Origin: a phage
Length of the DNA: 42,716 bases
Direction: 5' to 3' (one strand)
Sequence record: PZ386962.1
Under the pieces are notes generated by a model. The model saw nothing but the letters and a program-made list of their open reading frames with translations, was not told where the DNA came from and did not search any database. Shown here in pieces: positions 4,636-20,278 of the stretch. Positions within the stretch are counted from its first letter, which is position 1, and each line of letters starts with the position of its first letter. The position numbers were made by a program, and so were the translations under genes.

Positions 4636-4651
4636 ACACTTTCATAATTAT

Positions 4652-4801: not shown

Positions 4802-4878
4802 TCATATCGCCGGACAACACAGCGTCAACGTGTTGGACGGTGTAGGACGGTAACACTGCTCTTTAACAATCTGGTGTG

Positions 4879-4907: not shown

Positions 4908-5015
4908 GCTTCCACGTCAGCCAGCAAGCTAAACAGTCATTGATAAAGACGTTAAAACACACGTAGGCGAACTGGTACGGTTTAATTAACTCTGAAAGGG
5001 CGCTGATTAAAACGG

Positions 5016-5044
5016 TTGACAGGATGAAATGAGTATGCTGTAAT
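5016..5044 (+). promoter_or_regulatory. sigma70-type early promoter candidate 3
   Basis: TTGACA - 17 bp - TGcTGTAAT. Confidence 0.6.
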
Positions 5045-5095
5045 GCACACCAGATTGACAGGGCAGCAAGCCAGTCAGTCAGAAGTAAAAAGTAG

Positions 5096-5124
5096 TTGAC
5101 ACGCTGAATACGATGTGATGTAAT
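5096..5124 (+). promoter_or_regulatory. sigma70-type early promoter candidate 4
   Basis: TTGACA - 17 bp - TGaTGTAAT. Confidence 0.6.
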
Positions 5125-5556
5125 CAGCACCGAGTTGAAAGGTTGCAAAACAACCTGCTCTGAGTGAACGTAAACAGGCCACGTAGTGTCTCGGCCTCAT
5201 GGGTATCCGGCGCAGCTAGGAACTGGTGAGGGCACCGCCGAAAGGCAATAGGGGTAGCGCCCGGTGCGATGGGAACGGAGAAGCGCGATAGACGCAGCGC
5301 AGTATCAGCACAATCCCAAACGTCTTATAAGGCGCGGAGTGAAGCGGGTAGGTAGGCAAGCTGGTAACGGTGAGCCGGACTGCTGGAGGACTCCTGAGAG
5401 TGGATGCAGACAATATCCACGGCGCGAAATGGGCGGGGCGATTTTTCAGGGTAGTGAATCCGACAAGCCAATCAATGCCAACGAGTGCAGACTGTACGGC
5501 GCGTCACAATGGGTTCACTATCCACCTGAAAATAGCCAACAACTGGAGAAATTAAT

Positions 5557-5946
5557 ATGTACCGTATCTATGCAAGCGCATATCGTCAGGGCAACGCTGA
5601 GTCAGTCAATCTGGCGCTTCATTGCAAGGCACTGCGAACGGTGCAGGACATGTTCGGAGTGGTTCCGGTCACACTGACAGGCAAGTTCGACAATGCGTAT
5701 GAGTTAAGCATGGTCTTCCCTGTCGATGGAATCTACGAAATCCGACAGGCTGTTAAGCTGTTTTGTAAAGCCTTCGAACAGGACTGCATCATGGTAGTGA
5801 CCAAAGACGACGATGCAATCTTCATGGACTCACCGTATCCGGGTAAGCCTGCTGGCAAGCTGGTCAGCAAGACTAACGAGGAAATGGAAGCCGGGCAGCA
5901 TACCGCTTGGACTTACGATGGTGAGCAATTTTGGGTAGTGGAGTAA
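5557..5946 (+). CDS. hypothetical early protein
   Basis: 129-aa ORF, GGAGA RBS 6 nt upstream, first well-supported ORF downstream of the promoter cluster. Confidence 0.6.
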   Translation: MYRIYASAYRQGNAESVNLALHCKALRTVQDMFGVVPVTLTGKFDNAYELSMVFPVDGIYEIRQAVKLFCKAFEQDCIMVVTKDDDAIFMDSPYPGKPAGKLVSKTNEEMEAGQHTAWTYDGEQFWVVE

Positions 5947-6120
5947 GGAGCATGACTATGTTCACTGCACTGTGTGTTATTGCGGCGGCGTGTTGGGTTA
6001 TTGACCAGCGCCTGCCTAAGCGAGCCTGATATGTGGGACTTACTGGTAGCGTTATTCTGGTTCGTCTTTGCAGGCTTGTGGATTTACTGGCTGACTCGTC
6101 CCAAATTATGGTGACTGCCT

Positions 6121-6142
6121 AATGCGTCTTGCGAGGCGCATT
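6121..6142 (+). other. intergenic RNA stem-loop (8-bp stem, TTGCGA loop)
   Basis: AATGCGTC-TTGCGA-GGCGCATT; same loop sequence with different stems recurs at 7075 and 7484. Confidence 0.5.
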
Positions 6143-6178
6143 GTGAAGTAACCAACCAACAACCCGACGAGGTGTATC

Positions 6179-6706
6179 ATGACTACTGTTAAATATACTG
6201 CATTCAAAGACGCTGCCGCTCTGGACAAGGCCATTGAGTCTACCGTCAAGAAGGCGCACTCACTGCGTACCGACATCCAGAACGTTGCTGTCGGCATCAT
6301 CCTGCACGCTTACCATCACGGCGACTACACTCGTGCTGAATCCTTCGTGAATCAGCTCGGTCAGGGTGTCCGTGGCAAGGCGCTGGTAGACTGGTTCGTC
6401 AAGTTCGGCGGCCTGATTATCGGTGAGAACGGCGGGAAACAGGGTTTCATTGGCTGGCAGGGCGCTGAGTATATCAAGGCGAACATTGACACGGCCAAAG
6501 CCACTATGTGGTGGAGCCTGAAACCGGAGCAGACCTTCGAAGGCTTCGACCTGCAAGATGCGCTCGAAAAGCTGATTGCCAAAGCTGAGAAGGCGCTGAA
6601 CAAGGCCAATGAGCTGCGTCACGAAGGCAAGGACGAAGACGCGAACAAGGTAGTGGTGCCGCAGAACGTCCTCGACCTGCTGCGCAAGGCTAAACAGGCT
6701 GCCTAA
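6179..6706 (+). CDS. hypothetical early protein
   Basis: 175-aa ORF with GAGG RBS. Confidence 0.6.
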   Translation: MTTVKYTAFKDAAALDKAIESTVKKAHSLRTDIQNVAVGIILHAYHHGDYTRAESFVNQLGQGVRGKALVDWFVKFGGLIIGENGGKQGFIGWQGAEYIKANIDTAKATMWWSLKPEQTFEGFDLQDALEKLIAKAEKALNKANELRHEGKDEDANKVVVPQNVLDLLRKAKQAA

Positions 6707-6781
6707 GCGGGATTGACTCAAGCCAGTGTCAAGGCGCTGGCTTTATGGCAATTCTGCCCCAACCTATTCGGAGTATTACCC

Positions 6782-7063
6782 ATGACTATCAAAACTGTAA
6801 CTGCATTCGTGACCAAGAAAGCTGGCGAACTGTATGGCTTCGCTGTTTCCCTGAACGAAGGCCAGTACCTGCACCACGTCCGTGAAGAAGGCGAGCCGAC
6901 TGAGGCCGTAGCCATCCTCGAAACGTTGCAGGGTATCCCGCTGCCGCACGAGTTCATCATCATGCTCGCTGAGCAGGACGAAGACGACCTGCGACTGCGC
7001 CACGGTGACGACCTGACGATTGAAGAAATCGGCACGTTCGAAGCAGAAGTAGACGACGAGTAA
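6782..7063 (+). CDS. small acidic early protein
   Basis: 94 aa from internal ATG with GGAG RBS; Asp/Glu-rich acidic C-terminus; preceded by hairpin plus GGCAAT-N4-TGCC box. Confidence 0.55.
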   Translation: MTIKTVTAFVTKKAGELYGFAVSLNEGQYLHHVREEGEPTEAVAILETLQGIPLPHEFIIMLAEQDEDDLRLRHGDDLTIEEIGTFEAEVDDE

Positions 7064-7074
7064 GCGTTGTCCTG

Positions 7075-7096
7075 CTGCATCCTTGCGAGGGTGCAG
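7075..7096 (+). other. intergenic RNA stem-loop (8-bp stem incl. one G-U, TTGCGA loop)
   Basis: CTGCATCC-TTGCGA-GGGTGCAG followed by GGCAATAGTGCC box. Confidence 0.5.
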
Positions 7097-7134
7097 CGTG
7101 GCAATAGTGCCTTACTCAATCCGAGGGTTTTAAT

Positions 7135-7476
7135 ATGAGCATCAAACTTGTAATCCTGACCAACATCGCAGCTTCCGCATTCGGCGCAGACGTACCGGAA
7201 GAAGCGCGTACTGCTGAGTGGGTGGCGTTCACCTCCGACGACGAGGGCTACCTGATTGCAGGCCGCAACCGCGACGGCGACTCTGCCGAGGACATCGTGG
7301 CGCACTTCGACGCTGACGAAGGCTTCGCTGGGTTCGCAGCTTCTGGCCTGCCGCTGGAACTGTTCGGCATGATGAACGGCGTGCCTTTCATCGACCGTGA
7401 GAAGCTGGGCGCAGACGTGTCTGTCACCGAGCTGAAAGTGTACGGCGAAGAAGATGACGTAGACTTCTCTGCGTGA
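7135..7476 (+). CDS. small acidic early protein (possible DNA-mimic-type anti-host protein)
   Basis: 113 aa, about 25 percent Asp+Glu by hand count with few basic residues; GAGGG RBS. Confidence 0.6.
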   Translation: MSIKLVILTNIAASAFGADVPEEARTAEWVAFTSDDEGYLIAGRNRDGDSAEDIVAHFDADEGFAGFAASGLPLELFGMMNGVPFIDREKLGADVSVTELKVYGEEDDVDFSA

Positions 7477-7483
7477 TACCTTA

Positions 7484-7505
7484 CTGCCTCGTTGCGACGG
7501 GGCAG
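7484..7505 (+). other. intergenic RNA stem-loop (8-bp stem, TTGCGA loop)
   Basis: CTGCCTCG-TTGCGA-CGGGGCAG followed by GGCAATCATGCC box. Confidence 0.5.
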
Positions 7506-7541
7506 TGCGGCAATCATGCCCCAATCTACTGAGGATTTATT

Positions 7542-7817
7542 ATGTCCACTATCAATGTGTTTTCCCTGAATAACGGCGGTCTGGCTTTCATCGTTGGCGA
7601 GACTGTTGACAATGCACCTTCACTGGGTGTGCAGCCGAAGCCGGACGCAAGCCATGACGAGGTGATTGGCGAGGTGCGCGAGGCGCTGGAAGACCTCGGC
7701 GGTATGCTGATTGCCATTCAGGGTGGCAAGCTGTCGGTTGAAAAGCTGAATGCACTGGAGCCTCGCTTCATCACCAGCTTTGAAGCTGACAACGTAGACG
7801 CGGCTGACTTCGAGTAA
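7542..7817 (+). CDS. small acidic early protein
   Basis: 91 aa, GAGGA RBS, acidic composition. Confidence 0.6.
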   Translation: MSTINVFSLNNGGLAFIVGETVDNAPSLGVQPKPDASHDEVIGEVREALEDLGGMLIAIQGGKLSVEKLNALEPRFITSFEADNVDAADFE

Positions 7818-7852
7818 GCCGACCACTAACCCACCAGTAACAGGAGAACAAC

Positions 7853-8089
7853 ATGGCTAAGTTTGAACTGGTACGCTTCACCGACCCGAACGATGGTGAA
7901 GTAACCTATGCACAATTCGCTGACGACCGCCAGCAGGTGGCAGTGTACACCAGCAAGACCTTTGCTTTCGAACAGTTCGGTGAGGAACTGCACTTTGACA
8001 GCGTGAGCTACGTGCTGCTGTCCGGTGGTGAGTACGCCGATGCAGTGCAGGCCGCACTGGATGAAGGTGAAGTCATCAAGACTGCGTGA
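7853..8089 (+). CDS. small acidic early protein
   Basis: 78 aa, AGGAGA RBS. Confidence 0.6.
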   Translation: MAKFELVRFTDPNDGEVTYAQFADDRQQVAVYTSKTFAFEQFGEELHFDSVSYVLLSGGEYADAVQAALDEGEVIKTA

Positions 8090-8157
8090 TTTCTGTCAGC
8101 CCATCCATAGCGGTGGGCTGTAGGGCAATCATGCCACAACTAACTGAGGGTTTTACC

Positions 8158-8442
8158 ATGGCTAAAGTAACTGCATACTACTCCGCACAAGAGAAAGACA
8201 TCGTGGCTGTTGTTGGTGACGGCTTCGAAGAAGGCAACTATGCGCTGTGCATTTCCGGCTGCAAAGAAGTACCGAAGCTGAACACGGTTGATGATGCTGT
8301 GGCTGCGCTGCCGTCGCTGCAAGCTGACATCGAACGCATGGGTGAGCTGGCCTTCCTGCTGCACGGTGGTTCGCTGAACGCTACTGCTTCGGTTGACATG
8401 CCTGCCAAGGGCTACGAAGAAGTCGGTAGCTTCGAGGTCTAA
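8158..8442 (+). CDS. small acidic early protein
   Basis: 94 aa from ATG with GAGGG RBS; preceded by stem-loop and GGCAATCATGCC box. Confidence 0.55.
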   Translation: MAKVTAYYSAQEKDIVAVVGDGFEEGNYALCISGCKEVPKLNTVDDAVAALPSLQADIERMGELAFLLHGGSLNATASVDMPAKGYEEVGSFEV

Positions 8443-8444
8443 GC

Positions 8445-8780
8445 ATGGCGTTGCATCCGGTCAAGGTATTCCGTGGGCCTGACATTACGGATGGGCAAGA
8501 CGTGGCGGTACTGCTGTACCGCCTGCCCGATGGTCAGGAAGGGCTGGTCGTCATCGACCAGATTGAAATCTTAGGGCAGCAGATGTTGACGAGTGAGGCG
8601 AGCGACGAGCAAATCATCGAACGCTTCAAGGCGTACGCCGGGCGCAGGCCATTCATCATCGACCTGCTTAACGAGCTGCACTACAGCGCCGCGCCGCTGG
8701 CTATCCAGACGTGGCTCAAGATTCTCACTCCCATCTACGAGGGTGAGATGTATCTGTTTGGTATTGACAACGAGGAATAA
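8445..8780 (+). CDS. hypothetical early protein
   Basis: 111-aa ORF, GAGGT RBS. Confidence 0.55.
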   Translation: MALHPVKVFRGPDITDGQDVAVLLYRLPDGQEGLVVIDQIEILGQQMLTSEASDEQIIERFKAYAGRRPFIIDLLNELHYSAAPLAIQTWLKILTPIYEGEMYLFGIDNEE

Positions 8781-8782
8781 TC

Positions 8783-9028
8783 ATGGGTAAGAAAGTAACT
8801 TTGAAAGTAGTTAAGCGCCGCCCCGGATTCACCGTGGGTACTGAGTACCCGGCAGTGCTGATTGCTGAGGGCGAGAATCTGGTCAAGGCATTCCCTAAGC
8901 TGGCCTCGGTGTACGGCAAGGGCGCTGAGGATGTGGCAGGCTACGAAACTGTAGCCGTACTGGACGAGCGTGGCCATCCGTGTGACTTCTTCACGCAGGG
9001 CTATCACGACTGGTTCGAAATCGTTTAA
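8783..9028 (+). CDS. hypothetical early protein
   Basis: 81-aa ORF, GAGGA RBS. Confidence 0.55.
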   Translation: MGKKVTLKVVKRRPGFTVGTEYPAVLIAEGENLVKAFPKLASVYGKGAEDVAGYETVAVLDERGHPCDFFTQGYHDWFEIV

Positions 9029-9058
9029 CCAACCACCTAACCAAGAGAGGGTAACAAC

Positions 9059-9301
9059 ATGGCACGTTCTATTCTGATTCGCATCATCGGCCACACCGCA
9101 CAGCCGTCCCATTTCTCCGGCGCAGTGCGTGACACTACCATCGGTAAAGAGTACGCCGCTCTGCTGGTTGAAGCTGGCGAAGAAATCCCGGACGGCTGGG
9201 AAACTGACGAGCAAGGCATCGCGTTTGTTGATGACGTGGGTGATGACTGCTTCGCATACAGCTCGGCGCACCTCGGACACACCATCGAAATCGTCGAGTG
9301 A
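9059..9301 (+). CDS. hypothetical early protein
   Basis: 80-aa ORF, AGAGAGGG RBS. Confidence 0.55.
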   Translation: MARSILIRIIGHTAQPSHFSGAVRDTTIGKEYAALLVEAGEEIPDGWETDEQGIAFVDDVGDDCFAYSSAHLGHTIEIVE

Positions 9302-9357
9302 TAAGCTACAGCCTCTGCTTGCGGGGGCTGTGTCATTATCAAACGAGCGAGGTGAGC

Positions 9358-9510
9358 ATGAGCGGCAGCACATACAATGCGCACGCCAACCAGATAAGCT
9401 ACGCAGGGTACTGCGCACTGGGTGGGGCGAGCAACCCGAACCTAATGAGCCGGGCGGTGTATCTCGGCGGTCACTACATGCACCACGAATACTATTTAAT
9501 CAGGGGGTAA
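9358..9510 (+). CDS. hypothetical small protein
   Basis: 50 aa from ATG with GAGGTG RBS; preceded by stem-loop at 9309-9330 with TTGCG-containing loop. Confidence 0.35.
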   Translation: MSGSTYNAHANQISYAGYCALGGASNPNLMSRAVYLGGHYMHHEYYLIRG

Positions 9511-9512
9511 CT

Positions 9513-9797
9513 ATGGTACTGGCATCTGAAAGTATTATCGAACAGGCTGGCGCAATCCGTGAAGCTGAGCATCTGCGTGGGGTAGCCGCAACGCTCGGTC
9601 ACTGTGCTGGCAACGGCGGTCTGCGTGGGCATTCAGTCGGCGGCGTATTTCCCTGCGTGATATTCTCGCGGGGCAACCCACATGAACACCTCGACTGGTG
9701 CTTCCTCGCACCGAACGGCGACGAGTTCGACGGCTTCGTAAGTTATGAAGATGCGTATGCAGCCGCGCAGGTATGGCTGGAACAACGAGAGGTGTGA
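9513..9797 (+). CDS. hypothetical protein
   Basis: 94 aa from ATG with GGGGG RBS; upstream part of the longer listed ORF lacks an RBS and overlaps other genes. Confidence 0.5.
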   Translation: MVLASESIIEQAGAIREAEHLRGVAATLGHCAGNGGLRGHSVGGVFPCVIFSRGNPHEHLDWCFLAPNGDEFDGFVSYEDAYAAAQVWLEQREV

Positions 9798-9799
9798 GT

Positions 9800-10099
9800 A
9801 TGAGTAAGTGGAAAGATAACGTAGCCAAGCTACAGCGTTGGTTGGTCGATGCCTTTGGCGCACCGCCAGCCCCTGTGCATGACGACTCGCCGTTCCAATA
9901 CGTCGAGAAGAAAACGCAGGAGCTTAAGCTGGGTGACTACGTGGTAGCATACGGCGGTTACATCCAGCGCATCGGTGCCGTGGAGTATGACGGCAGCCGA
10001 CTGGTCGTAACCAAGTTAGGGCATGGGCCTGAGCGTGAGTGGCAGGCGTACGAAGATGACGAGTTCACCGTCCGTATTCTGAAAGAGGATAACAAATGA
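9800..10099 (+). CDS. hypothetical protein
   Basis: 99 aa from ATG with GAGGTG RBS. Confidence 0.5.
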   Translation: MSKWKDNVAKLQRWLVDAFGAPPAPVHDDSPFQYVEKKTQELKLGDYVVAYGGYIQRIGAVEYDGSRLVVTKLGHGPEREWQAYEDDEFTVRILKEDNK

Positions 10100-10608
10100 T
10101 TGACTTCAAAACTTTTAACCCGAAGCAGTTGGAAGTGATTAAGCTGCTGGCTGCACACATCGACAGCGAGCCTATGCTCAGTGAGCTGGTAGAGTTCAAG
10201 GGTGGCTACCTGCCGAAGCAAAGTTACATCGGCGCGGTGCGTGCCGGGCGCGAGGGTATGCTGGACATTGTTCCGGCCACTCGTACTGGTGCGCTGCTGG
10301 CACGCAACGTCAGCGTCATCATCGGCATGAACATGCGAGCTGCGCAGGCAGACGGTGACGAGGAGTTGCAGGTCGAGCTGCGTCTGGCTGGTAAGATGGC
10401 AGCGCAGGCTATGTCCTCGGTTGATATTGCTGAGAAGTATCACGACTGGTACATGGCGTGCTCCAATGTGCCGGGGGATATTAGCGAGACGGCGCTGGGT
10501 CTGCTGTTCGTGGGCGAGTTCATTGACACAACGATGCGTACTATCAAGGGCAACGTTGAGCAGATGATTCGTGCAATGCTGGAGTCGAAGAATGCAACGC
10601 GACACTAA
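10096..10608 (+). CDS. hypothetical protein
   Basis: 170-aa ORF, AGAGGA RBS, start overlaps upstream stop. Confidence 0.55.
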   Translation: MIDFKTFNPKQLEVIKLLAAHIDSEPMLSELVEFKGGYLPKQSYIGAVRAGREGMLDIVPATRTGALLARNVSVIIGMNMRAAQADGDEELQVELRLAGKMAAQAMSSVDIAEKYHDWYMACSNVPGDISETALGLLFVGEFIDTTMRTIKGNVEQMIRAMLESKNATRH

Positions 10609-10762
10609 GCTGGCCGTAGTCAAATCACCCACCGGATTATTCTGGTGGGTTGTTAATAAACTCCAGCCGAATAAACCTTTGGCTGTGCGTGACACAAAGT
10701 GGGAAGCCGAGAGTAAACTCGAAGACCTGCAACGCATAGTGCGTAATGTTATTCCGGTGTAG
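10592..10762 (+). CDS. hypothetical small basic protein
   Basis: 56 aa, GGAG RBS, overlaps 3' end of previous gene. Confidence 0.35.
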   Translation: MQRDTKLAVVKSPTGLFWWVVNKLQPNKPLAVRDTKWEAESKLEDLQRIVRNVIPV

Positions 10763-10772
10763 TCATCTACTC

Positions 10773-10797
10773 ATGCCTGTTATTATTTAGCAGGCAT
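10773..10797 (+). other. stem-loop (7-bp stem ATGCCTG/CAGGCAT, AT-rich loop) at early/middle boundary
   Basis: Perfect 7-bp inverted repeat with 11-nt loop; no U-tract; followed immediately by the ATGAAGGTGTCTATA motif. Confidence 0.35.
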
Positions 10798-10835
10798 TAT
10801 GAAGGTGTCTATATTGGCCAACGTGAGGATGAAAT

Positions 10836-11039
10836 ATGTTCCGAGTTATATTGTTGTTCCTGTTCCTCGTTATTATTTGGGGAGCTTTATGGATGGCGCT
10901 GGCAGTGTTCGCACTGATACCAGCCATCGGTGAGTCGGCTACTTCTTCGGTGGGTACGCTGCTCGGTATGCTGGTAGGCTGGGGCTTGATGCACGTAAGC
11001 CTGAGCGTAGGTCAGAGCCGGAGGTGGATTAGATGGTAA
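10836..11039 (+). CDS. small membrane protein (2 predicted TMDs)
   Basis: 67 aa, hydrophobic segments VILLFLFLVIIWGALWMALAVFALIPAI and GTLLGMLVGWGLMHV; GAGGA RBS. Confidence 0.55.
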   Translation: MFRVILLFLFLVIIWGALWMALAVFALIPAIGESATSSVGTLLGMLVGWGLMHVSLSVGQSRRWIRW

Positions 11040-11473
11040 AGCCTAAGTACAAAATCGGTGACGAGATTGTAGGTCACAACGACACTGGCACCCGGTCAGG
11101 TAAGCTGGGTATCATCGCATGGGTTAACCCTGACCGCCGAGCATGGGAGCGCAGTGGTGAGACCCGCTACATCGTGAGCTGGATTGGTGAGCGGCTGAAT
11201 GCACAGCCGGACATCAGCCACTACAAGTCTGATTGGCTGGAGGATAACACCAGTCTGGTCAGCCGCAAGCCAGAAGACCGGGGCCGCTACATGTGCTTGG
11301 TCGAAGGCAGCAATGCACCGCCGAAGGTTGAGCACATCACTGAACTGGATGCGCGGGAAGAAGCTGAGCGTTTGGCTGAGCGCAACGGAGGTACTGTCCG
11401 TGTGCTGCAAGTTGTAGCCAGCGTGAAGATGAAGAAGAAGATTCAGTACATACCAGAGTGGGATAACGAATGA
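11033..11473 (+). CDS. hypothetical protein
   Basis: 146-aa ORF, GGAGG RBS. Confidence 0.55.
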   Translation: MVKPKYKIGDEIVGHNDTGTRSGKLGIIAWVNPDRRAWERSGETRYIVSWIGERLNAQPDISHYKSDWLEDNTSLVSRKPEDRGRYMCLVEGSNAPPKVEHITELDAREEAERLAERNGGTVRVLQVVASVKMKKKIQYIPEWDNE

Positions 11474-12180
11474 TGAAATCAGTGAGCAACGACGAGTGGC
11501 CGGAGCTGGCGAAGCGTCTGCCAGTAGGACAAAAGCGAAGGACGTTTCACAGTTGCTCGCGGTCATTCAGCAAGACCAACTTTGAGTATGGCCGTGCGCC
11601 GGATTACATCTGGTGCAAGTGCCATCGCTGTGGGTACAGCCGCAAGCATGACCTGACCCATGCAGTGTACGTACCGCCAGCCGAGGTGCAGGTGAAGGTG
11701 CCGACTGATGTTGTGCCTATCACTGAGGTGATTGCCAAGCAGCCCCGCCTTCTCCTGCCTGTGCTGGAGCGCGAGAACCTGATGCCGCACCTGTCTATCC
11801 TGACTGCAAGCCCAACGTATGGCAGGCTGTATCTGCCGGACGACACGGGCAGCTACTGTGGTCTGGATTACACCGGGCGGCAGTTCATACCATGGCGCTC
11901 ACCGCACAAGCATAGCTTGGCGATGAAGGTACACCCGCGAGGTGAGGCTGAGACGAATTGCCTGTGGGTATACGGTGAGGTGGACGAGTATCTCCAGCAG
12001 GTACGTGACGGGGGCAACTGTGCTTTCGTGCCGAACGTGGATGACACGACATTGCAGGCACTGGTAAGTGTGACGCTGGCCTATGGCTACAACCTCGTGG
12101 TCATCTGCCACCACCCAAGTGCTCAACGTATCCGCAGGGAACTGCGTGTGGTAGGGCGAGTGCAGATAGTAGGAGAGTGA
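11470..12180 (+). CDS. DNA primase (zinc-binding + TOPRIM-like)
   Basis: Cys/His cluster near N-terminus (CKCHRCGY), acidic TOPRIM-like motifs (VYGEVDE, NVDD); lies where the primase half of T7 gp4 sits, upstream of the helicase. Confidence 0.55.
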   Translation: MMKSVSNDEWPELAKRLPVGQKRRTFHSCSRSFSKTNFEYGRAPDYIWCKCHRCGYSRKHDLTHAVYVPPAEVQVKVPTDVVPITEVIAKQPRLLLPVLERENLMPHLSILTASPTYGRLYLPDDTGSYCGLDYTGRQFIPWRSPHKHSLAMKVHPRGEAETNCLWVYGEVDEYLQQVRDGGNCAFVPNVDDTTLQALVSVTLAYGYNLVVICHHPSAQRIRRELRVVGRVQIVGE

Positions 12181-12181
12181 T

Positions 12182-12610
12182 GTGCTTGAGTGTATTGACC
12201 ACGGCCAGAAGGGTAATGCTAATGGCTACGGATATACCAGCCGCTATGTAGATGGCAAGCGGGTAGTGGTTGGGCTGCACCGCGCAGCTTACTGCGATGC
12301 GCATGGCCTGCCTTACTCTGCAATCAAGGGCAAGGTGGTCATGCACCGTTGTGATAACCCACGCTGTATCAACCCTGACCATCTGGTGTTGGGTACACAG
12401 GGAGACAACATGCAGGACATGATGGGCAAACGCCGACACCACAAGGGTGAGGCAACACCGCACGCCAAGCTGACGAGTGAGCAGGTCGTGCTTATCCGTA
12501 AGCTGTACGCTGAGGGCGGCGTAACCCAACGTGAACTTGCGTTGGAGTTCGGTGTATCCCAAACGAATATCAGTGCCATCGTAAGGGGAGAAACTTTCAG
12601 TGTTGGATAA
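12182..12610 (+). CDS. HNH homing endonuclease (HNH + C-terminal HTH)
   Basis: GTG start with AGGAG RBS; HRCDNPRCINPDHLVLGT HNH core; C-terminal helix-turn-helix-like tail; paralog of 18584-19009. Confidence 0.75.
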   Translation: MLECIDHGQKGNANGYGYTSRYVDGKRVVVGLHRAAYCDAHGLPYSAIKGKVVMHRCDNPRCINPDHLVLGTQGDNMQDMMGKRRHHKGEATPHAKLTSEQVVLIRKLYAEGGVTQRELALEFGVSQTNISAIVRGETFSVG

Positions 12611-13865
12611 ACTGTTGTTAACGGTGATGCGCGAGCGCGGGAAATACAACTCCCTGCGACACGCCATCCCGGAAGATACAATGAGCCAGACCACGGGCTA
12701 TATGCTGCGTGCTTACGGCTCATACTTTGACGCGTTCCCGGACAGTGACTTCATTGACATTGAGACACTGGGTACGCATGTTCGTTTGAAGACAGGCAGC
12801 ACGCCTGAACAGATGGCAGCCTTCGATTCGTTGTGCGCTCAGCTCAAAGAGTACAAGCCAACGAAGGAGCAGAAGGAGGGCATCCTTGACCAGCTCGTAG
12901 AGTTGGACACTGCTGGTCGTGCGAACCTGCTAATGCAACGGTACGATAATGGTGAAGAACTTGATATTATCTATGAGCTTGGCCGTCTGGCTGAGGGCGC
13001 ACGCCGCAGTCGGGGTCAATCATCCGTTACCGATTACGTCGATGACGATGTTGTTGACATTATTAATCGGACTGATGATGACCAAGGCTTTAAGTTCGGT
13101 CTCATGTGCCTGCAAGATAGCGTACGCGTACTGCTTCCCGGCGACTCCGTTGCAATCGCTGCCCGACCTGACAGTGGGAAGACCAGCTTCATCGCGTTTA
13201 ACCTTACGCGAATGGCGGCGACAGCAGCGAAGCTCTATCCGGGCAGACCAATCCTGTGGTTCAACAACGAAGGTCAGGGCATCAACATCATCCCGCGCAT
13301 CTATCAGGCGGCGCTCAACTGTACGCTCCCGGAACTGAAAGAGCTGGGTGAGGACAGAGGCAAGCTGCACGCTGCGTATGCCAAAGCACTGGGTGCGCCA
13401 GCCAATGTGATTCGTGTTAAGGATATGCACGGCGCGACGCTGGCGAAAGCTGAGCAGGTTATCGAAGCGATGAACCCGTGCATCGTGGTGTGGGATATGC
13501 TTGCCAACTTCAAGCTGTCTGTGTCTGACCCGTCAAGCAACAAGGCGAGTCAGGTCGAGCAGCTATGGCAGGAGGTACGTGAGCTGGCAGTGCGCCACAA
13601 CTTTGTGTCGCTGGCTACGGTTCAGGTATCTGCTGATGGTGCCGATGATATGTTCCCGGCACTGGATGCGCTCAAGGATTCCAAGACTGGTATCCAAGGG
13701 GCGACTGATGTTATCGTGATGCTCGGCAGTGTGGATGACCCATCACTGGCGGCGCGGCGCGGTGTCAGTACGCCGAAGAACAAACGCCAGATTGCTGGGC
13801 GTCCAAGCAACGTGCGGTCGCAGGTACACTTCTTTGCTGACCGCTGCCAATACGAGGATATGTAA
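12600..13865 (+). CDS. DNA helicase (DnaB-like / T7 gp4 helicase-domain-like)
   Basis: Walker A ARPDSGKTSF; size 421 aa; lies between primase and DNA polymerase; GTG start assumed. Confidence 0.7.
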   Translation: MLDKLLLTVMRERGKYNSLRHAIPEDTMSQTTGYMLRAYGSYFDAFPDSDFIDIETLGTHVRLKTGSTPEQMAAFDSLCAQLKEYKPTKEQKEGILDQLVELDTAGRANLLMQRYDNGEELDIIYELGRLAEGARRSRGQSSVTDYVDDDVVDIINRTDDDQGFKFGLMCLQDSVRVLLPGDSVAIAARPDSGKTSFIAFNLTRMAATAAKLYPGRPILWFNNEGQGINIIPRIYQAALNCTLPELKELGEDRGKLHAAYAKALGAPANVIRVKDMHGATLAKAEQVIEAMNPCIVVWDMLANFKLSVSDPSSNKASQVEQLWQEVRELAVRHNFVSLATVQVSADGADDMFPALDALKDSKTGIQGATDVIVMLGSVDDPSLAARRGVSTPKNKRQIAGRPSNVRSQVHFFADRCQYEDM

Positions 13866-14227
13866 TGAGCCATTTGAAGGTAGGTGACCGAGTAGTAAAC
13901 ATTGATGCACGCAGTGTGCATTACGGTGCGAAGGGTACTGTGGTTGACATCAACAACAAGTACGTGAGCATTGACCGCGACGATGGTGCGCGTGGTTCTG
14001 GTATCAGTGGCTCGTGGACTGCACGCCATGCGTCGTGGGCGCTGATTGGTGACGCTCCGCATGTGGCAGCCACGCCTGAACCGGAGGCGACTGCCGAGGA
14101 CTGGAGCTACGCTGAGGCTGAGCGTCTGTACCAAGCAGCGTGCGATGCCATGTCAGTGTACAACCAGTACGTTGAGCGTAAGCCGACGACCAGCTACCTG
14201 CCCGGCAGCGTGCCGAGTAAGTGGTGA
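13865..14227 (+). CDS. hypothetical protein (N-terminal KOW-like segment)
   Basis: 120-aa ORF, start overlaps helicase stop (TAATG). Confidence 0.5.
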   Translation: MSHLKVGDRVVNIDARSVHYGAKGTVVDINNKYVSIDRDDGARGSGISGSWTARHASWALIGDAPHVAATPEPEATAEDWSYAEAERLYQAACDAMSVYNQYVERKPTTSYLPGSVPSKW

Positions 14228-14347
14228 GGGGCCGCAGCTATCGCCGTTGCTCTTGCGGCGGCAGTCTGCTGGCTGAGCAGACCAAGGGCAAGGCCACTGG
14301 CAAGACGCTGGTGATTTACGAATGTGAAAAGTGTGGAGTAAAGCAGT

Positions 14348-14539
14348 ATGGAAGAACGCACGTATCGAGCGGCACCCTTAAACCAACGTGAGCAAGCAAC
14401 CATCCGGGCGCAGTACCGGAAGGGTGATGCGTTCCGTGGTGCCGAGGCGCTGGCCGAACGTTTCAATGTGCCGCCTGCTGATGTGGTGGCAGTGGTGAAC
14501 TTCACTTATCGCAAGGGGAAACAGAAGCATGATAAGTAA
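14348..14539 (+). CDS. hypothetical small basic protein
   Basis: 63 aa, GGAGTA RBS 7 nt upstream. Confidence 0.5.
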   Translation: MEERTYRAAPLNQREQATIRAQYRKGDAFRGAEALAERFNVPPADVVAVVNFTYRKGKQKHDK

Positions 14540-15212
14540 TGCAGAAGTCAAGCGCGTATGGGCAGAGGACATCTGCCGTCTGCTGCAATCACATGAGCTG
14601 AACTTTGTGGTTGCCGGGGGAGGGGCAAGGGATACAGCGCTGGGTGTTGAGCCGAAGGACTATGACATCGTGGTCTTTGGTTGGGGTGGGGATGTAAGCC
14701 GCGTGGTCGGCAGACTCGAATGGTTAGACACCAACCTCGAAGCGTACGCCAAGCAGCACAACCTGCCGTATGAGTACATGCCAAGCTACCACGATGCAGC
14801 CGAGGGCGGCGACTTCGGTTCCCGTCTGTACGGTGTGTTCAAGCTCGGCCCGGTTGACATCATCATCAGTAAGTGTGGCTGCTGGTCACAGGTGCTGAGC
14901 GAGTTCGACTTCAACCTGAACCAGTTCTACTTCCCGTCCAGTATCCCGCGATACTCCGGGCAGTACAGCCGTGACCCCGGTGAGTTCATGGCGTACCCGT
15001 ACGAGCCGAAGCTGACAGCCGAGGACGTGCAGTGGTATCCGGCGCTGGCCAGTCTGGTTGAAAGCTACGACGACCTGCTGACTCTCCGCGTCTGCCGACC
15101 GGATGCCAGCCTGAGTCGTGTGGCCTACATGCTGGAGAAGCACGAGACACACCGCGAGCGCATCGAAGCATACGTCAATCGTATGCCAGACCATTTGGGT
15201 GGCACAGCATAG
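14529..15212 (+). CDS. Pol-beta-superfamily nucleotidyltransferase-like protein
   Basis: GG-x11-DYD signature (VVAGGGARDTALGVEPKDYDIVVF) matching the hG[GS]x9-13Dh[DE]h NTase motif, later VDIII acidic motif; AAGGGGA RBS. Confidence 0.55.
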   Translation: MISNAEVKRVWAEDICRLLQSHELNFVVAGGGARDTALGVEPKDYDIVVFGWGGDVSRVVGRLEWLDTNLEAYAKQHNLPYEYMPSYHDAAEGGDFGSRLYGVFKLGPVDIIISKCGCWSQVLSEFDFNLNQFYFPSSIPRYSGQYSRDPGEFMAYPYEPKLTAEDVQWYPALASLVESYDDLLTLRVCRPDASLSRVAYMLEKHETHRERIEAYVNRMPDHLGGTA

Positions 15213-15222
15213 CGGGGGATGA

Positions 15223-17688
15223 ATGGCAATTAGAGCACAGGTAATCGACGTTGAGACTGAGAACCATGAGTGGTACGGGGAGCTGGCATCGCCGCGCTGC
15301 CCGGATAACTATGTGGTTATGCAGGGCCAGCGTGACTGTGTGCTGACCAAGGATGGCTGGGTATTCTACGAGCGCGAGGAGTATCGGTACAGTTCTCGTG
15401 AGGACTGGTTGCAGAACAAGAGTCTGCACCTGCATCCTGACACGAACATTCTGGTAGCTCACAACGCGCCGTATGAATTGAGCTGGTGGTTCGAGCATTA
15501 CGGTGACGAGTTCATTGCCTTCCTCAAACGAGGTGGCCGTGTATTCTGTACCGCGTATGCTGAGTACCTGCTGACGCATCAGCAATCCCAGTACCCATCC
15601 TTGAACGAGACAGCACCGAAGTATGGTGGTACTCACAAGGTGGATGCAGTCAAGGCAATGTGGGAGTCAGGCTATCTGACCAGCCAGATTGACCCTGAGC
15701 TGTTGAGCGAGTATCTGTCCGGGCCGTCCGGGGATATTGAGAACACGACCAAGCTGTTCGTTGGTCAGTGGGCTGAACTGACAAAGCAGGGCATGTTGCC
15801 GATGGCACTGACCCGCTTCGAAGGTATGCTCATGTGGGCGTACATGATGCACGCTGGTCTGCATGTTGACCGTGAGGTAGCCGAGCGCAACCGTCGCGAG
15901 TTACAGGATGCAATCAGTGGACTGACTGATACCCTACTGAGTTACCTGCCAGCCGACATGCCGAAGGAAGCGCGTGAGCAATTCAAGTTCACGTCAGCTT
16001 ATCACATGAGCGCCTTCGTGTTCGGTGGTGTGATGAAGTACAAGGCGCGAGTCGAGCGCCGGGATGCCGAGGGCAATCTCATTTACGTGAAGGTGGATGC
16101 ACCACTGTTCAAGCGAGGCAAGGACAAGTGGCTCAAGCATACCAGCGAGTGTGAGTGGGATGACGAGACTGGGTTGTGGTATGACCCGGTTGAGAAGGTA
16201 CACCAGACTATCTACACCAGCGGCAAGCACAAGGGCGAGCCGAAGTTTGAGAAGCTGGCTACCGACGAGGTGGATACCAAGTGGGGTGAGGTGCTGTTCC
16301 GTATGCCGGGGCTTCTGCGTGTGCAGGACAAACGAGCGAAGGAGATTGCAGACAACCTCGAATGGGAAGACCCGAAGAAGCCGGGCGAGTATCTCCGGCG
16401 CACAGGTGATTGGGTAGGTAAGCGTAGGCTGGCCGATGGTTCCCCGGTATTCAGTACGGCGGGTGAGGTGCTGGACATTCTGGCAGCTCGTAAGATTCCC
16501 GGCGTGGTGGAGATTGCTGACCGGGCCAAGGCACAGAAAGACCTCGGCACCTACTACCTCAGCGAGACGTTCGATGAAGAAGGTAACGTGACTGGCCAGT
16601 CGGGGATGATGCAGTTCATCCAGCCGGACAGTATCGTACACCACACCATCAACATGACCGCGACCGAGACGACGCGCTTATCTTCGGCGCGACCGAACAG
16701 CCAGAACTTGCCACGTAAAGGTACGAGTAAGGTTAAGCAGATGTTCACCTCCCGCTTTGGTGAAGGTGGCCGCATCGTTGAAGCTGACTACTCGGCACTG
16801 GAAGTGGTGGGGCTGGCCGGGTTCAGTAAGGATAAGAACCTGATTCGTGCATTGCTCGACGGTATCGACATGCACTGTATGCGTCTGTCAGCTCAGCTCA
16901 ACGAGCCATACGAGGACGTGCTTAAGAAGTGCAAGGATGAATCCCATCCCGACCATGCACGATACAGTCAGATGCGTACTGACATTAAGCCGAAGGCGTT
17001 CTCATATCAGTATGGTGCAACAGCGCGAGGTATTGCGTACTCGACTGGTTGCTCTGAGGAAGAAGCTCAAGCGTTCATCGACAACGAGAAGGGTCTGTTC
17101 CCGGAAGTTGAAGAATGGTTCGACTCGGTTATCTTCCCAGCCGTAGAGAAAAGTGGACAGAGCAATGTGTTCAAGGAGCAGGACGAGAACGGAAGATGGC
17201 AGGTGTATCGCCGTGGTCACTTCCGGTCGCCGGGTGGAACTTGTTATTCATTCCGTCAGTACGAGAAATGGAACAAGGCGGCGCGTGCTCACCTGATGGA
17301 ATACAAACCAACTCAGATGCGTAACTATCCCATTCAGGGTGAGACAGCATTTTGGGTACAGGGAATCGGTGGCTTGCTGTTCCGCTGGCTGCTATCGAAT
17401 GACTTCTTTGGTGGGCGTGTGGTTCCCATCAACCAAGTGCATGACGCATTCTATTTCGACATTGCACCTGACTGCCCTCACGAGTTCTTCGTTGGACTCA
17501 AGGCAATCATGGAGAGCATCCCGGAATACTATAACCACGTATGGCCAGAGTATAACCTGACAGTGCCGTTCCCGGCAGAGGTGGAAGCAGGGCCAAGCAT
17601 GTACGAGAAGCACCACGTAGAGACGACAGCCGATGAAGTGCTGGAGTTTAAGAGACAATTCCTGTTGAGTAAGGGTATCGCATTATGA
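15223..17688 (+). CDS. DNA polymerase, family A (T7 gp5-like) with 3'-5' exonuclease domain
   Basis: Exo I DxE (VIDVETE), motif A (EADYSALEV), motif B R-x3-K-x3-F-x2-YG (RTDIKPKAFSYQYG), motif C region (VHDAFYFD); 821 aa. Confidence 0.85.
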   Translation: MAIRAQVIDVETENHEWYGELASPRCPDNYVVMQGQRDCVLTKDGWVFYEREEYRYSSREDWLQNKSLHLHPDTNILVAHNAPYELSWWFEHYGDEFIAFLKRGGRVFCTAYAEYLLTHQQSQYPSLNETAPKYGGTHKVDAVKAMWESGYLTSQIDPELLSEYLSGPSGDIENTTKLFVGQWAELTKQGMLPMALTRFEGMLMWAYMMHAGLHVDREVAERNRRELQDAISGLTDTLLSYLPADMPKEAREQFKFTSAYHMSAFVFGGVMKYKARVERRDAEGNLIYVKVDAPLFKRGKDKWLKHTSECEWDDETGLWYDPVEKVHQTIYTSGKHKGEPKFEKLATDEVDTKWGEVLFRMPGLLRVQDKRAKEIADNLEWEDPKKPGEYLRRTGDWVGKRRLADGSPVFSTAGEVLDILAARKIPGVVEIADRAKAQKDLGTYYLSETFDEEGNVTGQSGMMQFIQPDSIVHHTINMTATETTRLSSARPNSQNLPRKGTSKVKQMFTSRFGEGGRIVEADYSALEVVGLAGFSKDKNLIRALLDGIDMHCMRLSAQLNEPYEDVLKKCKDESHPDHARYSQMRTDIKPKAFSYQYGATARGIAYSTGCSEEEAQAFIDNEKGLFPEVEEWFDSVIFPAVEKSGQSNVFKEQDENGRWQVYRRGHFRSPGGTCYSFRQYEKWNKAARAHLMEYKPTQMRNYPIQGETAFWVQGIGGLLFRWLLSNDFFGGRVVPINQVHDAFYFDIAPDCPHEFFVGLKAIMESIPEYYNHVWPEYNLTVPFPAEVEAGPSMYEKHHVETTADEVLEFKRQFLLSKGIAL

Positions 17689-18584
17689 CCGCATCTGTAT
17701 TGAACCGCATGAACTCCATCGTCGAACAGTATGTTGACGAGGAAGAACTTGACTTTAACGAAGCCACGTCTGGTGGTGGTAAGCTGCTGCCGGAAGGTAA
17801 GGCACTGGCACGTCTGGTTGGCTACATTGAAGTGGGGCCGAGCGTAACCAAGCAGGCACCGGACAAGCCGCCTGTCAATAAGTTCTTCCTCCAGTTCGCG
17901 CTGTGGGGCAAGGCCAAGAACGGCGAGACTTACCACGAAGTTGTCAATGGTAAGATGGTGCCGGGCAAGGTGCGCACGCAGTTCATCGCTGTGAAGAAAG
18001 ACCTCAACAGCAAGTCCGGCGCATACAAACTGTTTAAGCGTATGAACCCGGACAAGACTGCGAAGCACTTCGCGCAGCTTCTGAACCACACCTTCATCGT
18101 TCCGATTATCCACAACGAATCGGGCGAGGGCGAGAACAAGAAGGTGTACGCCAACATCGACCTTGAGAACATCATGCTCGCGGTTGACCCGGTGACTGAC
18201 CAGCCGTACCCGGTGCCGGAGGTTGAGGACGAGACGCTGTTCAAGCTGTTCCTGTGGAACCGTCCGACCAAGGAAGACTGGGAATCCCTGTACATCGAAG
18301 GTAAGAACGACGATGGCAAATCCAAGAACTGGATTCAGGATAAGCTGCTGGAATCTCCAGAGTTCCCCGGCTCTCCGCTTGACCTGCTGCTGAATGGTGC
18401 AGGTGCTGGCTCGGCAATCGCTGAGCTGCCGGAGCTGGGCGACGTAAGCCAGCCGGAGGAAGTGGCTGAGGTTAAGCAGGAAGTGCAGGAGCTGGCGACG
18501 GCTGGTGCGGCTGACAAGTCGGCAGCGTCTAAGCCTGAGCCGGACGTAACTGGTGACGCTGACTTCGGGCTGCCGAGTCTGTAA
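17685..18584 (+). CDS. hypothetical DNA-metabolism-associated protein with acidic C-terminus
   Basis: 299-aa ORF overlapping DNA polymerase stop; acidic C-terminal tail; function not assignable. Confidence 0.5.
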   Translation: MTASVLNRMNSIVEQYVDEEELDFNEATSGGGKLLPEGKALARLVGYIEVGPSVTKQAPDKPPVNKFFLQFALWGKAKNGETYHEVVNGKMVPGKVRTQFIAVKKDLNSKSGAYKLFKRMNPDKTAKHFAQLLNHTFIVPIIHNESGEGENKKVYANIDLENIMLAVDPVTDQPYPVPEVEDETLFKLFLWNRPTKEDWESLYIEGKNDDGKSKNWIQDKLLESPEFPGSPLDLLLNGAGAGSAIAELPELGDVSQPEEVAEVKQEVQELATAGAADKSAASKPEPDVTGDADFGLPSL

Positions 18585-19009
18585 TGGATTGCATAGACCA
18601 CGGTAAACGCGGCAACCACTTTGGCTACGCCACCACCACGAGGACGGTAGGTGGCAAGCGCCGGGCTGGTATCAAGCTGCATCGTCTGGTCTACTGTGAA
18701 GCGCATGGCCTGTCTCTCCTTGACATTGAGGGGCAGGTCGTGCGCCATACCTGCGACAACCCGCGCTGCATTAACCCCGACCACATGGTACTCGGTACTC
18801 ACCAAGACAATGTGGCCGACCGGGTAGCGCGTGGCCGTGGGGCAGTAGGCGTGAGGAATGGCAGAGCCGTACTGTGTCCCGCCGTAGTGGACGCAATCCG
18901 TAGCCGCTATGCGAATGGCGGCATCAAGCAATCTGAGCTGGCTGAGATTTATGGCGTGAGTCAAACGCAGGTCAGCCGCATAGTGAGGGGAGAGTCATGG
19001 GAAAGTTAG
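18584..19009 (+). CDS. HNH homing endonuclease (paralog of 12182-12610)
   Basis: HTCDNPRCINPDHMVLGT core; clearly co-linear with the other HNH protein over its full length. Confidence 0.75.
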   Translation: MDCIDHGKRGNHFGYATTTRTVGGKRRAGIKLHRLVYCEAHGLSLLDIEGQVVRHTCDNPRCINPDHMVLGTHQDNVADRVARGRGAVGVRNGRAVLCPAVVDAIRSRYANGGIKQSELAEIYGVSQTQVSRIVRGESWES

Positions 19010-19971
19010 ACAGGCTACTCGCCAGAGCGGAGGTGGAACCTGACCAGTTTGATGGTTACGTGTCTGGTCGTATTCTGCTGTGTGATGCTGACTCGACAGT
19101 CTACGTTGCGGCAGCAACCACGAAGAACATCGAGACAGCGAAGACGCGGTTCTGTTCCGGGGTGCTGACTGCTAAGTTCCTCGCCAATGCTCAGTCAGTC
19201 CGTATCGAGTTGACCGCTGCGGAGTGTACGAAAGCTGGACGGTACAAGCTGCGTGGGGCCAAGCTGTATCAGGGCAACCGAGACAAAGACCGCAAGCCCG
19301 GTCTGGTCGAGCCGTTGCGTAAGGCGATTGGCCGGAATATGTTCAACGTTCCTGATGGCGAGGATTGGTACGTCCACCTGAACTTCGAGTTCGAGGCAGA
19401 CGACACCTTAATCATGGATGCGTGGACGATTGGCATTAACGATGCAGTAATCTACAGCGCGGATAAAGACCTGCGCTGCTGGCCGGGCAGGTTCCTTGAC
19501 CCGTACGACAACAAGGTACTGGAGCCATGCAAAGGTGTGGGCCGTCTGTGGTGGCATGAGACCAAGAGTGACAAGTCACTGATTGGTCATGGGCCTATCT
19601 TCTTTTGGGCACAGATGCTGATGGGCGACAGCGCCGACAACATCGCAGGTGTCAAGAAGATTGGTAAACAGACAGCTTACGATATGCTGGTCGATTATCA
19701 GGAGACTGATGACGAGTCGGCTGTGGCTGAGTTCGTGCTCCGTGAGTACATGGTGCGCGACCAGAACCCATGGCCAGAAGCAGTGGCGTTGTGGCTGTAC
19801 CGCACGCCGACCTACTCATTCGCAGCCCACCTCAATACGCTGACCTTGAGCAAGGAGCTGCGTGTCTGGCTGCATAAGAAACTGAATGAGGAATGGTATG
19901 CGGAAAGTGACTGGCGCGACCTTGTTGCAGATGCGGAAGAATGCGATGGGCTGTCCTTGCCCACTCTGTAA
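18997..19971 (+). CDS. 5'-3' exonuclease (T7 gp6-like, FEN-type)
   Basis: Acidic motifs in the order expected for T7 gp6-like exonucleases (LLCDADSTVYVAA, ADDTLIMDAW, YSADKDLRCWPG); GAGGGGAGAG RBS. Confidence 0.65.
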   Translation: MGKLDRLLARAEVEPDQFDGYVSGRILLCDADSTVYVAAATTKNIETAKTRFCSGVLTAKFLANAQSVRIELTAAECTKAGRYKLRGAKLYQGNRDKDRKPGLVEPLRKAIGRNMFNVPDGEDWYVHLNFEFEADDTLIMDAWTIGINDAVIYSADKDLRCWPGRFLDPYDNKVLEPCKGVGRLWWHETKSDKSLIGHGPIFFWAQMLMGDSADNIAGVKKIGKQTAYDMLVDYQETDDESAVAEFVLREYMVRDQNPWPEAVALWLYRTPTYSFAAHLNTLTLSKELRVWLHKKLNEEWYAESDWRDLVADAEECDGLSLPTL

Positions 19972-20278
19972 CGAGCCGATGGTAGACCTCAAGCTCATGG
20001 TGGTTGACCATGACCATGTGAGCGGGGAGATTCGCGGTGTCATCTGTCGCTGGTGTAATGCTCAGCTCGGTAAGGTAGAGAACTCTGCGAACCGGGCGAA
20101 GCGCCAGCGTACAGTTGACGACTGGTTGGACAGTGCCATTGAGTGGCGACGTAAGCAACACACTGGTCTGATGTACCCAACGCACAAGACCGAGGCAGAG
20201 AAGAAAGCGGCGATGGCCGACAGACGTAAGAAGGCGGCAGCCGCGAAAGCGCGAGCCTTAATCACTAAGGGGAAATGA
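19946..20278 (+). CDS. endonuclease VII-like Holliday junction resolvase
   Basis: Zinc-binding HNH-like core CPCPLCNEPMVDLKLMVVDHDHVSGEIRGVICRWCN typical of endonuclease VII family; start uncertain (19886, 19931 or 19946). Confidence 0.6.
   Translation: MGCPCPLCNEPMVDLKLMVVDHDHVSGEIRGVICRWCNAQLGKVENSANRAKRQRTVDDWLDSAIEWRRKQHTGLMYPTHKTEAEKKAAMADRRKKAAAAKARALITKGK

Follow-up and report, generated by a model that had tools for sequence, protein, structure and literature searches.

Two putative free-standing homing-endonuclease genes of the T7 gp2.8/gp7.7 family at replication-gene junctions of a Bonnellvirus genome

T7 gp7.7 and gp2.8 are HNH endonuclease-like products of non-essential genes of T7-like phages, and to our knowledge no target sites have been published for either protein. 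In phage T4, free-standing HNH genes of the mob type (e.g. MobE) lie between the co-transcribed essential genes nrdA and nrdB, are polymorphic, and are mobilised together with flanking DNA (PMC2790892, PMC2988022); it is established that the T4 seg and mob genes spread by cutting alleles that lack them, the break then being repaired by recombination (PMC2988022, PMC2790892). The IPA-HNH homing-endonuclease genes (HEGs) of vibriophage ICP1, with which the concept of a "HEG island" is associated (Barth, Dunham and Seed 2023), are enriched beside DNA polymerase and replisome genes and lie at boundaries of sequence exchange (PMC10448857). Here we examine a phage DNA of 42,716 nucleotides (nt), sequence record PZ386962.1 (the whole stretch is referred to as the window), which carries two small HNH genes in its replication module. 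HNH1 lies between the primase and helicase genes (site 1), and HNH2 lies between a gene that follows the DNA polymerase gene and the exonuclease gene (site 2). As judged from their sequences, HNH1 and HNH2 are probably two independently acquired, free-standing HEGs of the T7 gp2.8/gp7.7 family that are parasitic on a Bonnellvirus genome. The basis for this reading consists of the protein domains, the conservation of catalytic residues, the presence/absence polymorphism, the independent assortment of the two genes, a young cassette, purifying selection, and recoding that is linked to the cassettes. Cleavage, the target sites, the choice between a nick and a double-strand break, and biased inheritance are what we infer from these observations.

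Occupancy of the two sites was compared in 11 fetched Bonnellvirus isolates and in the public assembly contigs L014 (40.8 kb, metagenomic), L015 (10.2 kb), L016, L017, L020, L025 and L027. Both genes are absent from ten of the isolates (altidsur, aldrigsur, mellemsur, megetsur, SS-2025, HHU8, glasur, Kc261, J8-65 and Lidtsur), and the eleventh, LF82-23, is without both cassettes but has a different HNH allele at site 1 (51% identity). L014 carries HNH1 at the same junction and has an empty site 2, L015 is empty at site 1 and carries HNH2 at site 2, and the window carries both. All four occupancy states, (-,-), (+,-), (-,+) and (+,+), were seen, and HNH1 and HNH2 therefore assort independently. 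At least 17 genomes or contigs have no insertion at site 1; the window and L014 carry HNH1 there, and LF82-23 and L020 carry other alleles. At site 2, HNH2 occurs in the window, L015 and L016 and a 55% allele in L017; elsewhere this site is empty or holds an open reading frame (ORF) of 65 amino acids (aa). A sequence-only reading that preceded this work had suggested that relatives be compared for the presence or absence of the genes at these junctions. The relatives do vary, and carriage of the same HNH genes at the same positions by all of them is not what the comparison showed. The same reading had called the second gene a paralog of the first, which is correct at the level of the family but not in the sense of a duplication within this genome. 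That origin was rejected because the two genes share only 56% nucleotide identity and are inherited in different combinations, and because HNH1 resembles the L020 site-1 allele (63% identity) more than it resembles HNH2 (53%); they appear to have been acquired independently. No copies besides these two were detected in the window by tblastn with HNH1 and HNH2.

The window as a whole is collinear with the altidsur genome in a whole-genome comparison and is circularly permuted by about 6.1 kb, such that window 36604-42716 matches altidsur 1-6113 and window 1-6014 matches altidsur 6114-12138; because of this collinearity with permutation, we regard the window as a complete Bonnellvirus genome. 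Matches to the region 11000-20500 were found in 26 phage records, the top one being Escherichia phage altidsur (Bonnellvirus), at 96.9% identity. Relative to the whole of altidsur, the only insertions longer than 100 nt in the window are the two HNH cassettes, which appear as BLAST gaps at 12190-12599 and 18585-19040.

The window and L014 copies of HNH1 are identical at 428 of 429 nt, with a synonymous divergence (dS) of 0, and the site 1 cassettes agree at 417 of 418 nt. The backbones of the same two genomes are about 88% identical, the 200 nt adjacent to the cassette are 88-92% identical, and dS is 0.43 for primase, 0.51 for helicase and 0.41 for polymerase. Because the cassette is far younger than the backbones in which it resides (dS 0 versus 0.41-0.51), we conclude that HNH1 moved horizontally and recently. 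HNH2 of the window differs from that of L015 at 28 of 426 nt, three of the changes being non-synonymous, and the resulting ratio of non-synonymous to synonymous divergence (dN/dS) of 0.03 means that the constraint on HNH2 is no weaker than that on the replication genes (0.05-0.08). This ratio suggests that HNH2 encodes a selected, working protein. The HNH2 copies in L015 and L016, which occupy the same site, are 93.4% identical in nucleotide and 98% identical in amino acid sequence, and dS between the window and L015 is 0.29 for HNH2 versus 0.50 for helicase. To locate sequence changes that accompany the cassettes, the four flanking genes were scanned for positions common to carriers and missing from all non-carriers. 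This linkage scan found no cassette-linked variants in primase, helicase, the 299-aa post-polymerase gene or exonuclease outside the junctions, and the flank recoding that is strictly linked to the cassettes affects codons 2-4 of helicase and codons 1-15 of exonuclease. The presence/absence pattern, the independent assortment and the youth of HNH1 relative to the backbone support the homing interpretation that had been proposed from the sequence alone.

At site 1, HNH1 was placed by the sequence-only reading exactly between primase and helicase and overlapping the helicase start. This arrangement is confirmed: the GTG of HNH1 lies one base past the primase stop and its 3′ end overlaps the helicase start by 11 nt. 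The site 1 insertion (Table 1) can equally be placed at 12190-12607, this ambiguity arising because an imperfect 8-nt repeat (GTGCTTGA/GTGTTGGA) is found on both sides. In the empty allele, which is near-invariant in relatives, the sequence GGAGAG-TGA-T-GTG-CTT-GAC-AAG-CTG comprises the Shine-Dalgarno sequence (SD), the primase stop, one base and the helicase start. The left side of the window is unaltered through GTGCTTGA, which is now the start of HNH1 (MLECIDHG), and HNH1 has thus taken the original helicase SD GGAGAG and the GTG-CTT-GA start. On the right side the window reads GGGGAG-AAACTTTCA-GTG-TTG-GAT-AAA-CTG. The last HNH1 codons, for the conserved residues R-G-E, contain the bases GGGGAG, which accordingly provide a new helicase SD; the length of helicase equals that in relatives, and its codons 2-4 are synonymously recoded (TTG GAT AAA versus CTT GAC AAG in the empty allele). 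The L014 site-1 junctions are identical to those of the window. Position 12608 is the sole HNH1-linked flank variant scored in 11000-14500, the recoded positions 12603-12605 falling in gap columns that were not scored.

Two stretches of altered identity were observed next to site 1. The segment 11900-12180 of the window, about 300 nt before HNH1, is 88-94% identical to the two closest relatives, versus 97-100% around it; this could be the remnant of a co-converted flank from the HNH1 donor, and its sequence is not L014-like. In LF82-23 (L002), the first ~400 nt of helicase (2067-2470, corresponding to window 12600-13000) are 72-82% identical to the window before identity jumps to 97-100%, and this segment has variants common to J8-65 and Lidtsur. 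It looks like a co-conversion tract that arrived with the HNH allele of that phage.

In T7, primase and helicase form one polypeptide (gp4), and the sequence-only reading, having described this contrast accurately, had supposed that relatives may carry a fused primase-helicase. We found no such fusion, and that candidate was rejected: primase and helicase are separate genes in all Bonnellvirus, LIMEzero-like and Cronosvirus loci examined, whether HNH is present or absent, and in the isolates they are 1-9 nt apart. Because the genes are separate with or without HNH, the HNH gene did not create the primase/helicase split, which is ancestral in the clade.

HNH2 was found, as had been described, between the post-polymerase gene and the exonuclease gene, the start of which overlaps the HNH2 3′ end by 13 nt. 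HNH2-linked variants are restricted to 18585-19041 in the linkage scan. The exonuclease start in L015 and L016 has the same recoded variant as the window (MGKLDRLLARVEDEP), and identity to relatives picks up again exactly at GACCAGTTTGATGG, past exonuclease codon 15. The recoded 15 codons that travel with HNH2 are a candidate immunity patch or a candidate co-converted target region. Near HNH2 the closest relative of the window switches from altidsur-like to mellemsur-like at ~18400-18583 and stays so through ~19900; this switch is compatible with co-conversion and does not prove it, because the genomes are mosaic throughout. The ORFs beside both HNH genes are intact, their lengths match those in relatives, and neither HNH gene interrupts a host gene.

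The empty site 2 contains a spacer of 36-37 nt with a conserved hairpin before exonuclease. The hairpin GGCAC-AGGGAY-GTGCC (L001 7662-7698, L003 7668-7702) is missing from the window at 18584, and L014 has at 14758-14793 the form GGCCAC...GTGGCC, a compensatory extra base pair; the hairpin may serve as a signal for RNA processing or for termination. The site has a third state, in which an unrelated 65-aa ORF (MRELEPGEVIVYDEPRDMCMV...) lies between the hairpin and exonuclease in mellemsur, megetsur, LF82-23, J8-65 and Lidtsur. The possibility that this ORF is a decayed HNH gene was rejected because no resemblance was seen by eye.

The two proteins are co-linear, as had been noted from the shared blocks CIDHG, CDNPRCINPDH and IVRGE; they align from end to end with 53% identity (E 4e-49). 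Both match Pfam HNH_3 (PF13392; HNH1 33.4 bits, HNH2 35.3 bits, gathering score 24.8), and HTH_3 was matched in both at residues ~105-138, in agreement with the C-terminal helix-turn-helix (HTH) that had been recognised in HNH1. HNH1 also passes PF05551, the I-PpoI zinc-loop model (30.4 versus 27), zf-His_Me_endon was matched as well, and the proteins match PHROG 59 and 6254 ("HNH endonuclease"). Residues C4, Y16, H33, H55, C57, D58, C62, P65, H67, G71 and N76 are invariant across 76 aligned homologs. By analogy, H55 is predicted to be the general base and N76 a metal ligand. An AlphaFold2 (AF2) model of HNH1 (predicted local distance difference test score, pLDDT, 89) shows a beta-hairpin at the N-terminus, a strand-strand-helix core at H55-N76 (strands 52-55 and 68-71, then helix 73-82) and a three-helix C-terminal domain; its best structural matches in PDB are I-HmuI, at the top, and I-PpoI. 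In tblastn searches against T7, gp7.7 matched with 40% identity over 137 aa (E 1.4e-22) and gp2.8 with 37% over 124 aa (E 7e-18). These alignments, together with the combination of HNH_3 and a C-terminal HTH, assign HNH1 and HNH2 to the T7 gp2.8/gp7.7 family, which database records of related phages name explicitly.

Searches with each protein (tblastn) found family homologs in more than 900 of 50,697 phage records, with no allele match at or above 80% identity in the same 50,697 records. No deposited phage holds these two alleles; the phenomenon itself is textbook. The paper describing Bonnellvirus does not mention HNH or homing genes. Kc318, PAS7 and a T7-like contig carry family members at other places, namely after exonuclease, after helicase and between the terminase subunits. 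Others lie directly before primase and DNA polymerase (L015 1382-1828 and 5154-5519, L025 6816-7238, L027 10633-11052), and the 10-kb contig L015 has three HNH genes within its replication module. A helicase-anchored scan of IMG/VR yielded only 7 loci, with HNH1 or HNH2 in none.

We propose the following course of events. When a phage with an HNH gene and a relative without it infect the same cell, the HNH protein would bind a specific sequence at or beside the empty junction through its HTH and N-terminal beta-sheet, the HNH1 target being the primase stop/helicase start and the HNH2 target the spacer and exonuclease 5′ end. The candidate cut region in the empty alleles would be near TGATGTGCTTGACAAGCTG at site 1, and the hairpin with the first 45 nt of exonuclease at site 2. 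The beta-beta-alpha-metal site, in which His55 would be the general base and Asn76 a metal ligand and which has a Cys/His zinc scaffold, would nick or cut the DNA, and phage recombination functions would then mend the break from the HNH-carrying template, so that the cassette and a short flank are copied into the recipient. In the carrier genome the target site would be split or recoded by the insertion, and that genome would thereby be protected. HNH1 would spare helicase by taking its SD and start codon and encoding a replacement SD and GTG in its own final codons, and HNH2 would spare exonuclease through translational coupling to the gene before it (TAATG) and by donating the exonuclease SD and first 15 codons. 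A further proposal, which we regard as rather doubtful, is that the cassettes are self-stabilising "start-swap" modules, the imprecise loss of which would damage essential-gene expression (addiction), and that both bracket the helicase-polymerase core as a HEG island that Bonnellviruses could exchange as one unit.

Several observations weigh against the homing reading. The HNH2 cassette is only moderately closer between carriers than its flanks (92.6% versus ~88%), a weaker signal than that of HNH1. Exact junction patterns had 0 matches in IMG/VR and JGI metagenome contigs. In the PDB sequence search, the nuclease half was unmatched and the HTH half alone was weakly matched (2lvs, E 3e-4). Free-standing HEGs of T4 often cut hundreds of base pairs from their insertion site (PMC2988022), and for this reason the placement of the targets at the junctions depends solely on the linkage scan. 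Finally, mosaicism was seen throughout the genomes, identity to any single relative changing every few hundred base pairs, and because of this mosaicism a cassette might in principle be moved by ordinary recombination alone.

The last point leads to an alternative in which the HNH genes are passive accessory genes (morons) that are shuffled by general recombination, with a nuclease that is inactive or is used otherwise, for example to degrade host or competitor DNA. The pervasive mosaicism speaks for this explanation, and the presence of the unrelated 65-aa ORF marks site 2 as a hot spot of gene gain in general. We nevertheless think that passive shuffling is unlikely. The invariance of the catalytic and zinc-binding residues and the dN/dS of HNH2 suggest that a working nuclease has been kept, and an HNH1 with dS 0 in backbones with dS 0.4-0.5, with break points within ~15-45 nt of the ORF, is the pattern that homing predicts. 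Moreover, the same junctions are also occupied by diverged alleles of this family, and the family is akin to proven homing endonucleases.

According to a second alternative, the HNH proteins are domesticated and beneficial to the phage, either as interference weapons against co-infecting relatives or as accessory factors of replication or recombination, and are kept by selection at the level of the phage. HNH2 is under purifying selection of the same strength as essential replication genes, an intron-encoded HNH protein of PhiPA3 aids competition between co-infecting phages (PMC11620839), and T4 SegB has been reported to help immune evasion (PMC13096335). Against this stand viable isolates that are 96-97% identical to the window over this region, grow on E. 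coli K-12 and lack both genes, from which it follows that the HNH genes are dispensable. A benefit in competition would in any case be compatible with homing and is no true alternative to it, and the genes are not located beside terminase as are the HK97-type packaging HNH proteins. Domestication therefore seems to us very improbable. A third explanation, that the ORFs arose by chance or through faulty assembly, has in its favour only the general caution that an ORF list is mechanical. It is refuted by domain matches above curated cut-offs, by the HNH1/HNH2 homology, by the same cassettes at the same junctions in independent assemblies, and by homologs in more than 1,300 phage records.

Three other settings for the genes were considered and rejected. 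An intron- or intein-encoded context was rejected since the Rfam scan of the whole window matched no family, group I and II introns included, and the flanking ORFs are intact. Terminase-associated HNH proteins of the HK97 gp74 type were rejected since the genes are in the replication module, TerS/TerL are elsewhere, and the closest relatives lack the genes. A HEG island between HNH1 and HNH2 was rejected on the grounds that the 6-kb block is 98% identical to that of HNH-less altidsur and ~89% identical to that of HNH1-carrying L014.

The coordinates of the features are collected in Table 1; those given to HNH1, HNH2 and their neighbours by the sequence-only reading all match the ORF list.

Table 1. 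Features at and around the two junctions. Positions are those of the window, except in the last row, where the records of relatives are named; SD, Shine-Dalgarno sequence.
Feature	Position	Strand	Evidence or remark
DNA primase, 236 aa, left flank of site 1	11470-12180	+	PHROG 8634, E 1.4e-72; annotated primase in altidsur, J8-65 and others
HNH1, 142 aa, GTG start	12182-12610	+	HNH_3 and HTH; putative homing-endonuclease gene
HNH1 insertion relative to HNH-less relatives, 418 nt	12182-12599	.	Junction alignments to 12 genomes with empty site 1
Predicted catalytic residues of HNH1	His55 codon 12344-12346; Asn76 codon 12407-12409	+	Family alignment, analogy
Replacement helicase initiation region from HNH1 3′ end	12585-12602	+	SD GGGGAG, 9-nt spacer, GTG
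DnaB-like replicative helicase, 421 aa, GTG start, right flank of site 1	12600-13865	+	Pfam DnaB_C, AAA_25; PHROG 19
DNA polymerase	15223-17688		ORF list
299-aa post-polymerase gene, left flank of site 2	17685-18584	+	PHROG 862, E 1.2e-76; conserved, in all relatives
HNH2, 141 aa, ATG overlapping upstream TAA	18584-19009	+	HNH_3 and HTH; second putative homing-endonuclease gene
HNH2 cassette	18585-19041	.	Replaces 37-nt hairpin spacer (or 65-aa ORF) and first 45 nt of exonuclease in relatives
Exonuclease SD AGGGGAG	18986-18992	+	Within HNH2
Recoded first 15 exonuclease codons	18997-19041	+	MGKLDRLLARAEVEP in window versus MSRLKRLLHNAEELD in relatives
5′-3′ exonuclease, 324 aa, right flank of site 2	18997-19971	+	Pfam 5_3_exonuc; PHROG 107
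65-aa ORF at site 2	L003 7703-7900; L002 7969-8166; L009 7711-7908; L010 8556-8753

Some features outside the HNH cassettes were also recorded. An ORF for an endonuclease VII (Holliday-junction resolvase type), which is outside the mobile HNH family, has a possible start at 19886 and ends at 20278, giving an 86-nt overlap with exonuclease; it is conserved in all relatives, where it is annotated as shorter (300-333 nt; J8-65, 381 nt). A segment of ~335-343 nt (gene altidsur_13) that is present in altidsur and L023 is missing from the window at ~6701, and 85 nt at 6032-6116 are specific to the window, with no repeat of that segment elsewhere in it.

The two junctions and their four states provide a natural case of what is probably ongoing homing in a little-sampled coliphage genus. 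The flank recoding points to candidate target sites tens of bases long, by which the specificity of the T7 gp2.8/gp7.7 family, as yet uncharacterised, is made directly testable. For annotation and taxonomy, it is relevant that, as regards insertions longer than 100 nt, the window differs from its nearest relative by the two HNH cassettes alone. The general understanding of phage biology is unchanged.

How, then, do HNH1 and HNH2 compare with the systems described so far? HNH packaging factors of the HK97 gp74 type lie beside terminase and portal genes and are universal in their group, and neither holds for HNH1 and HNH2. I-HmuI, the nicking HNH homing endonuclease of SPO1 (PDB 1U3E), has only 17-19% identity to the HNH proteins described here; it is encoded by an intron of the gene for DNA polymerase, whereas HNH1 and HNH2 are free-standing, and it differs from them in that they have a Cys-rich CDNPRC zinc loop, which also matches PF05551. 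The location of HNH1 and HNH2 beside replisome genes agrees with surveys made in other phages (PMC10448857). The ICP1 HEGs resemble HNH2 in that a sequence-exchange boundary adjoins the gene (the switch at ~18400-18583 in the window), but they carry a C-terminal AP2 domain where HNH1 and HNH2 carry an HTH, and the 6-kb block between HNH1 and HNH2 is without the identity pattern of an island.

The T4 mob genes are closer in their arrangement, being likewise free-standing, located in a short gap between essential genes, and polymorphic among relatives. They belong to another phage family, however, with no detectable close sequence relationship to HNH1 and HNH2, and T4 HEGs often cut far off, whereas the cassette-linked variants here are at the junction only. 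The closest counterparts are T7 gp7.7 and gp2.8. The position differs, in that the T7 genes lie between 2.5 and 3 and before gene 8, whereas those described here lie between primase and helicase and before exonuclease. In other respects the likeness is extensive: the T7 proteins share with HNH1 and HNH2 the HxCDNPxCxNxxHLxxGTxxxN core and the C-terminal YGVSQxTI helix-turn-helix, and the genes in both cases are small free-standing ORFs packed between conserved Autographiviridae genes.

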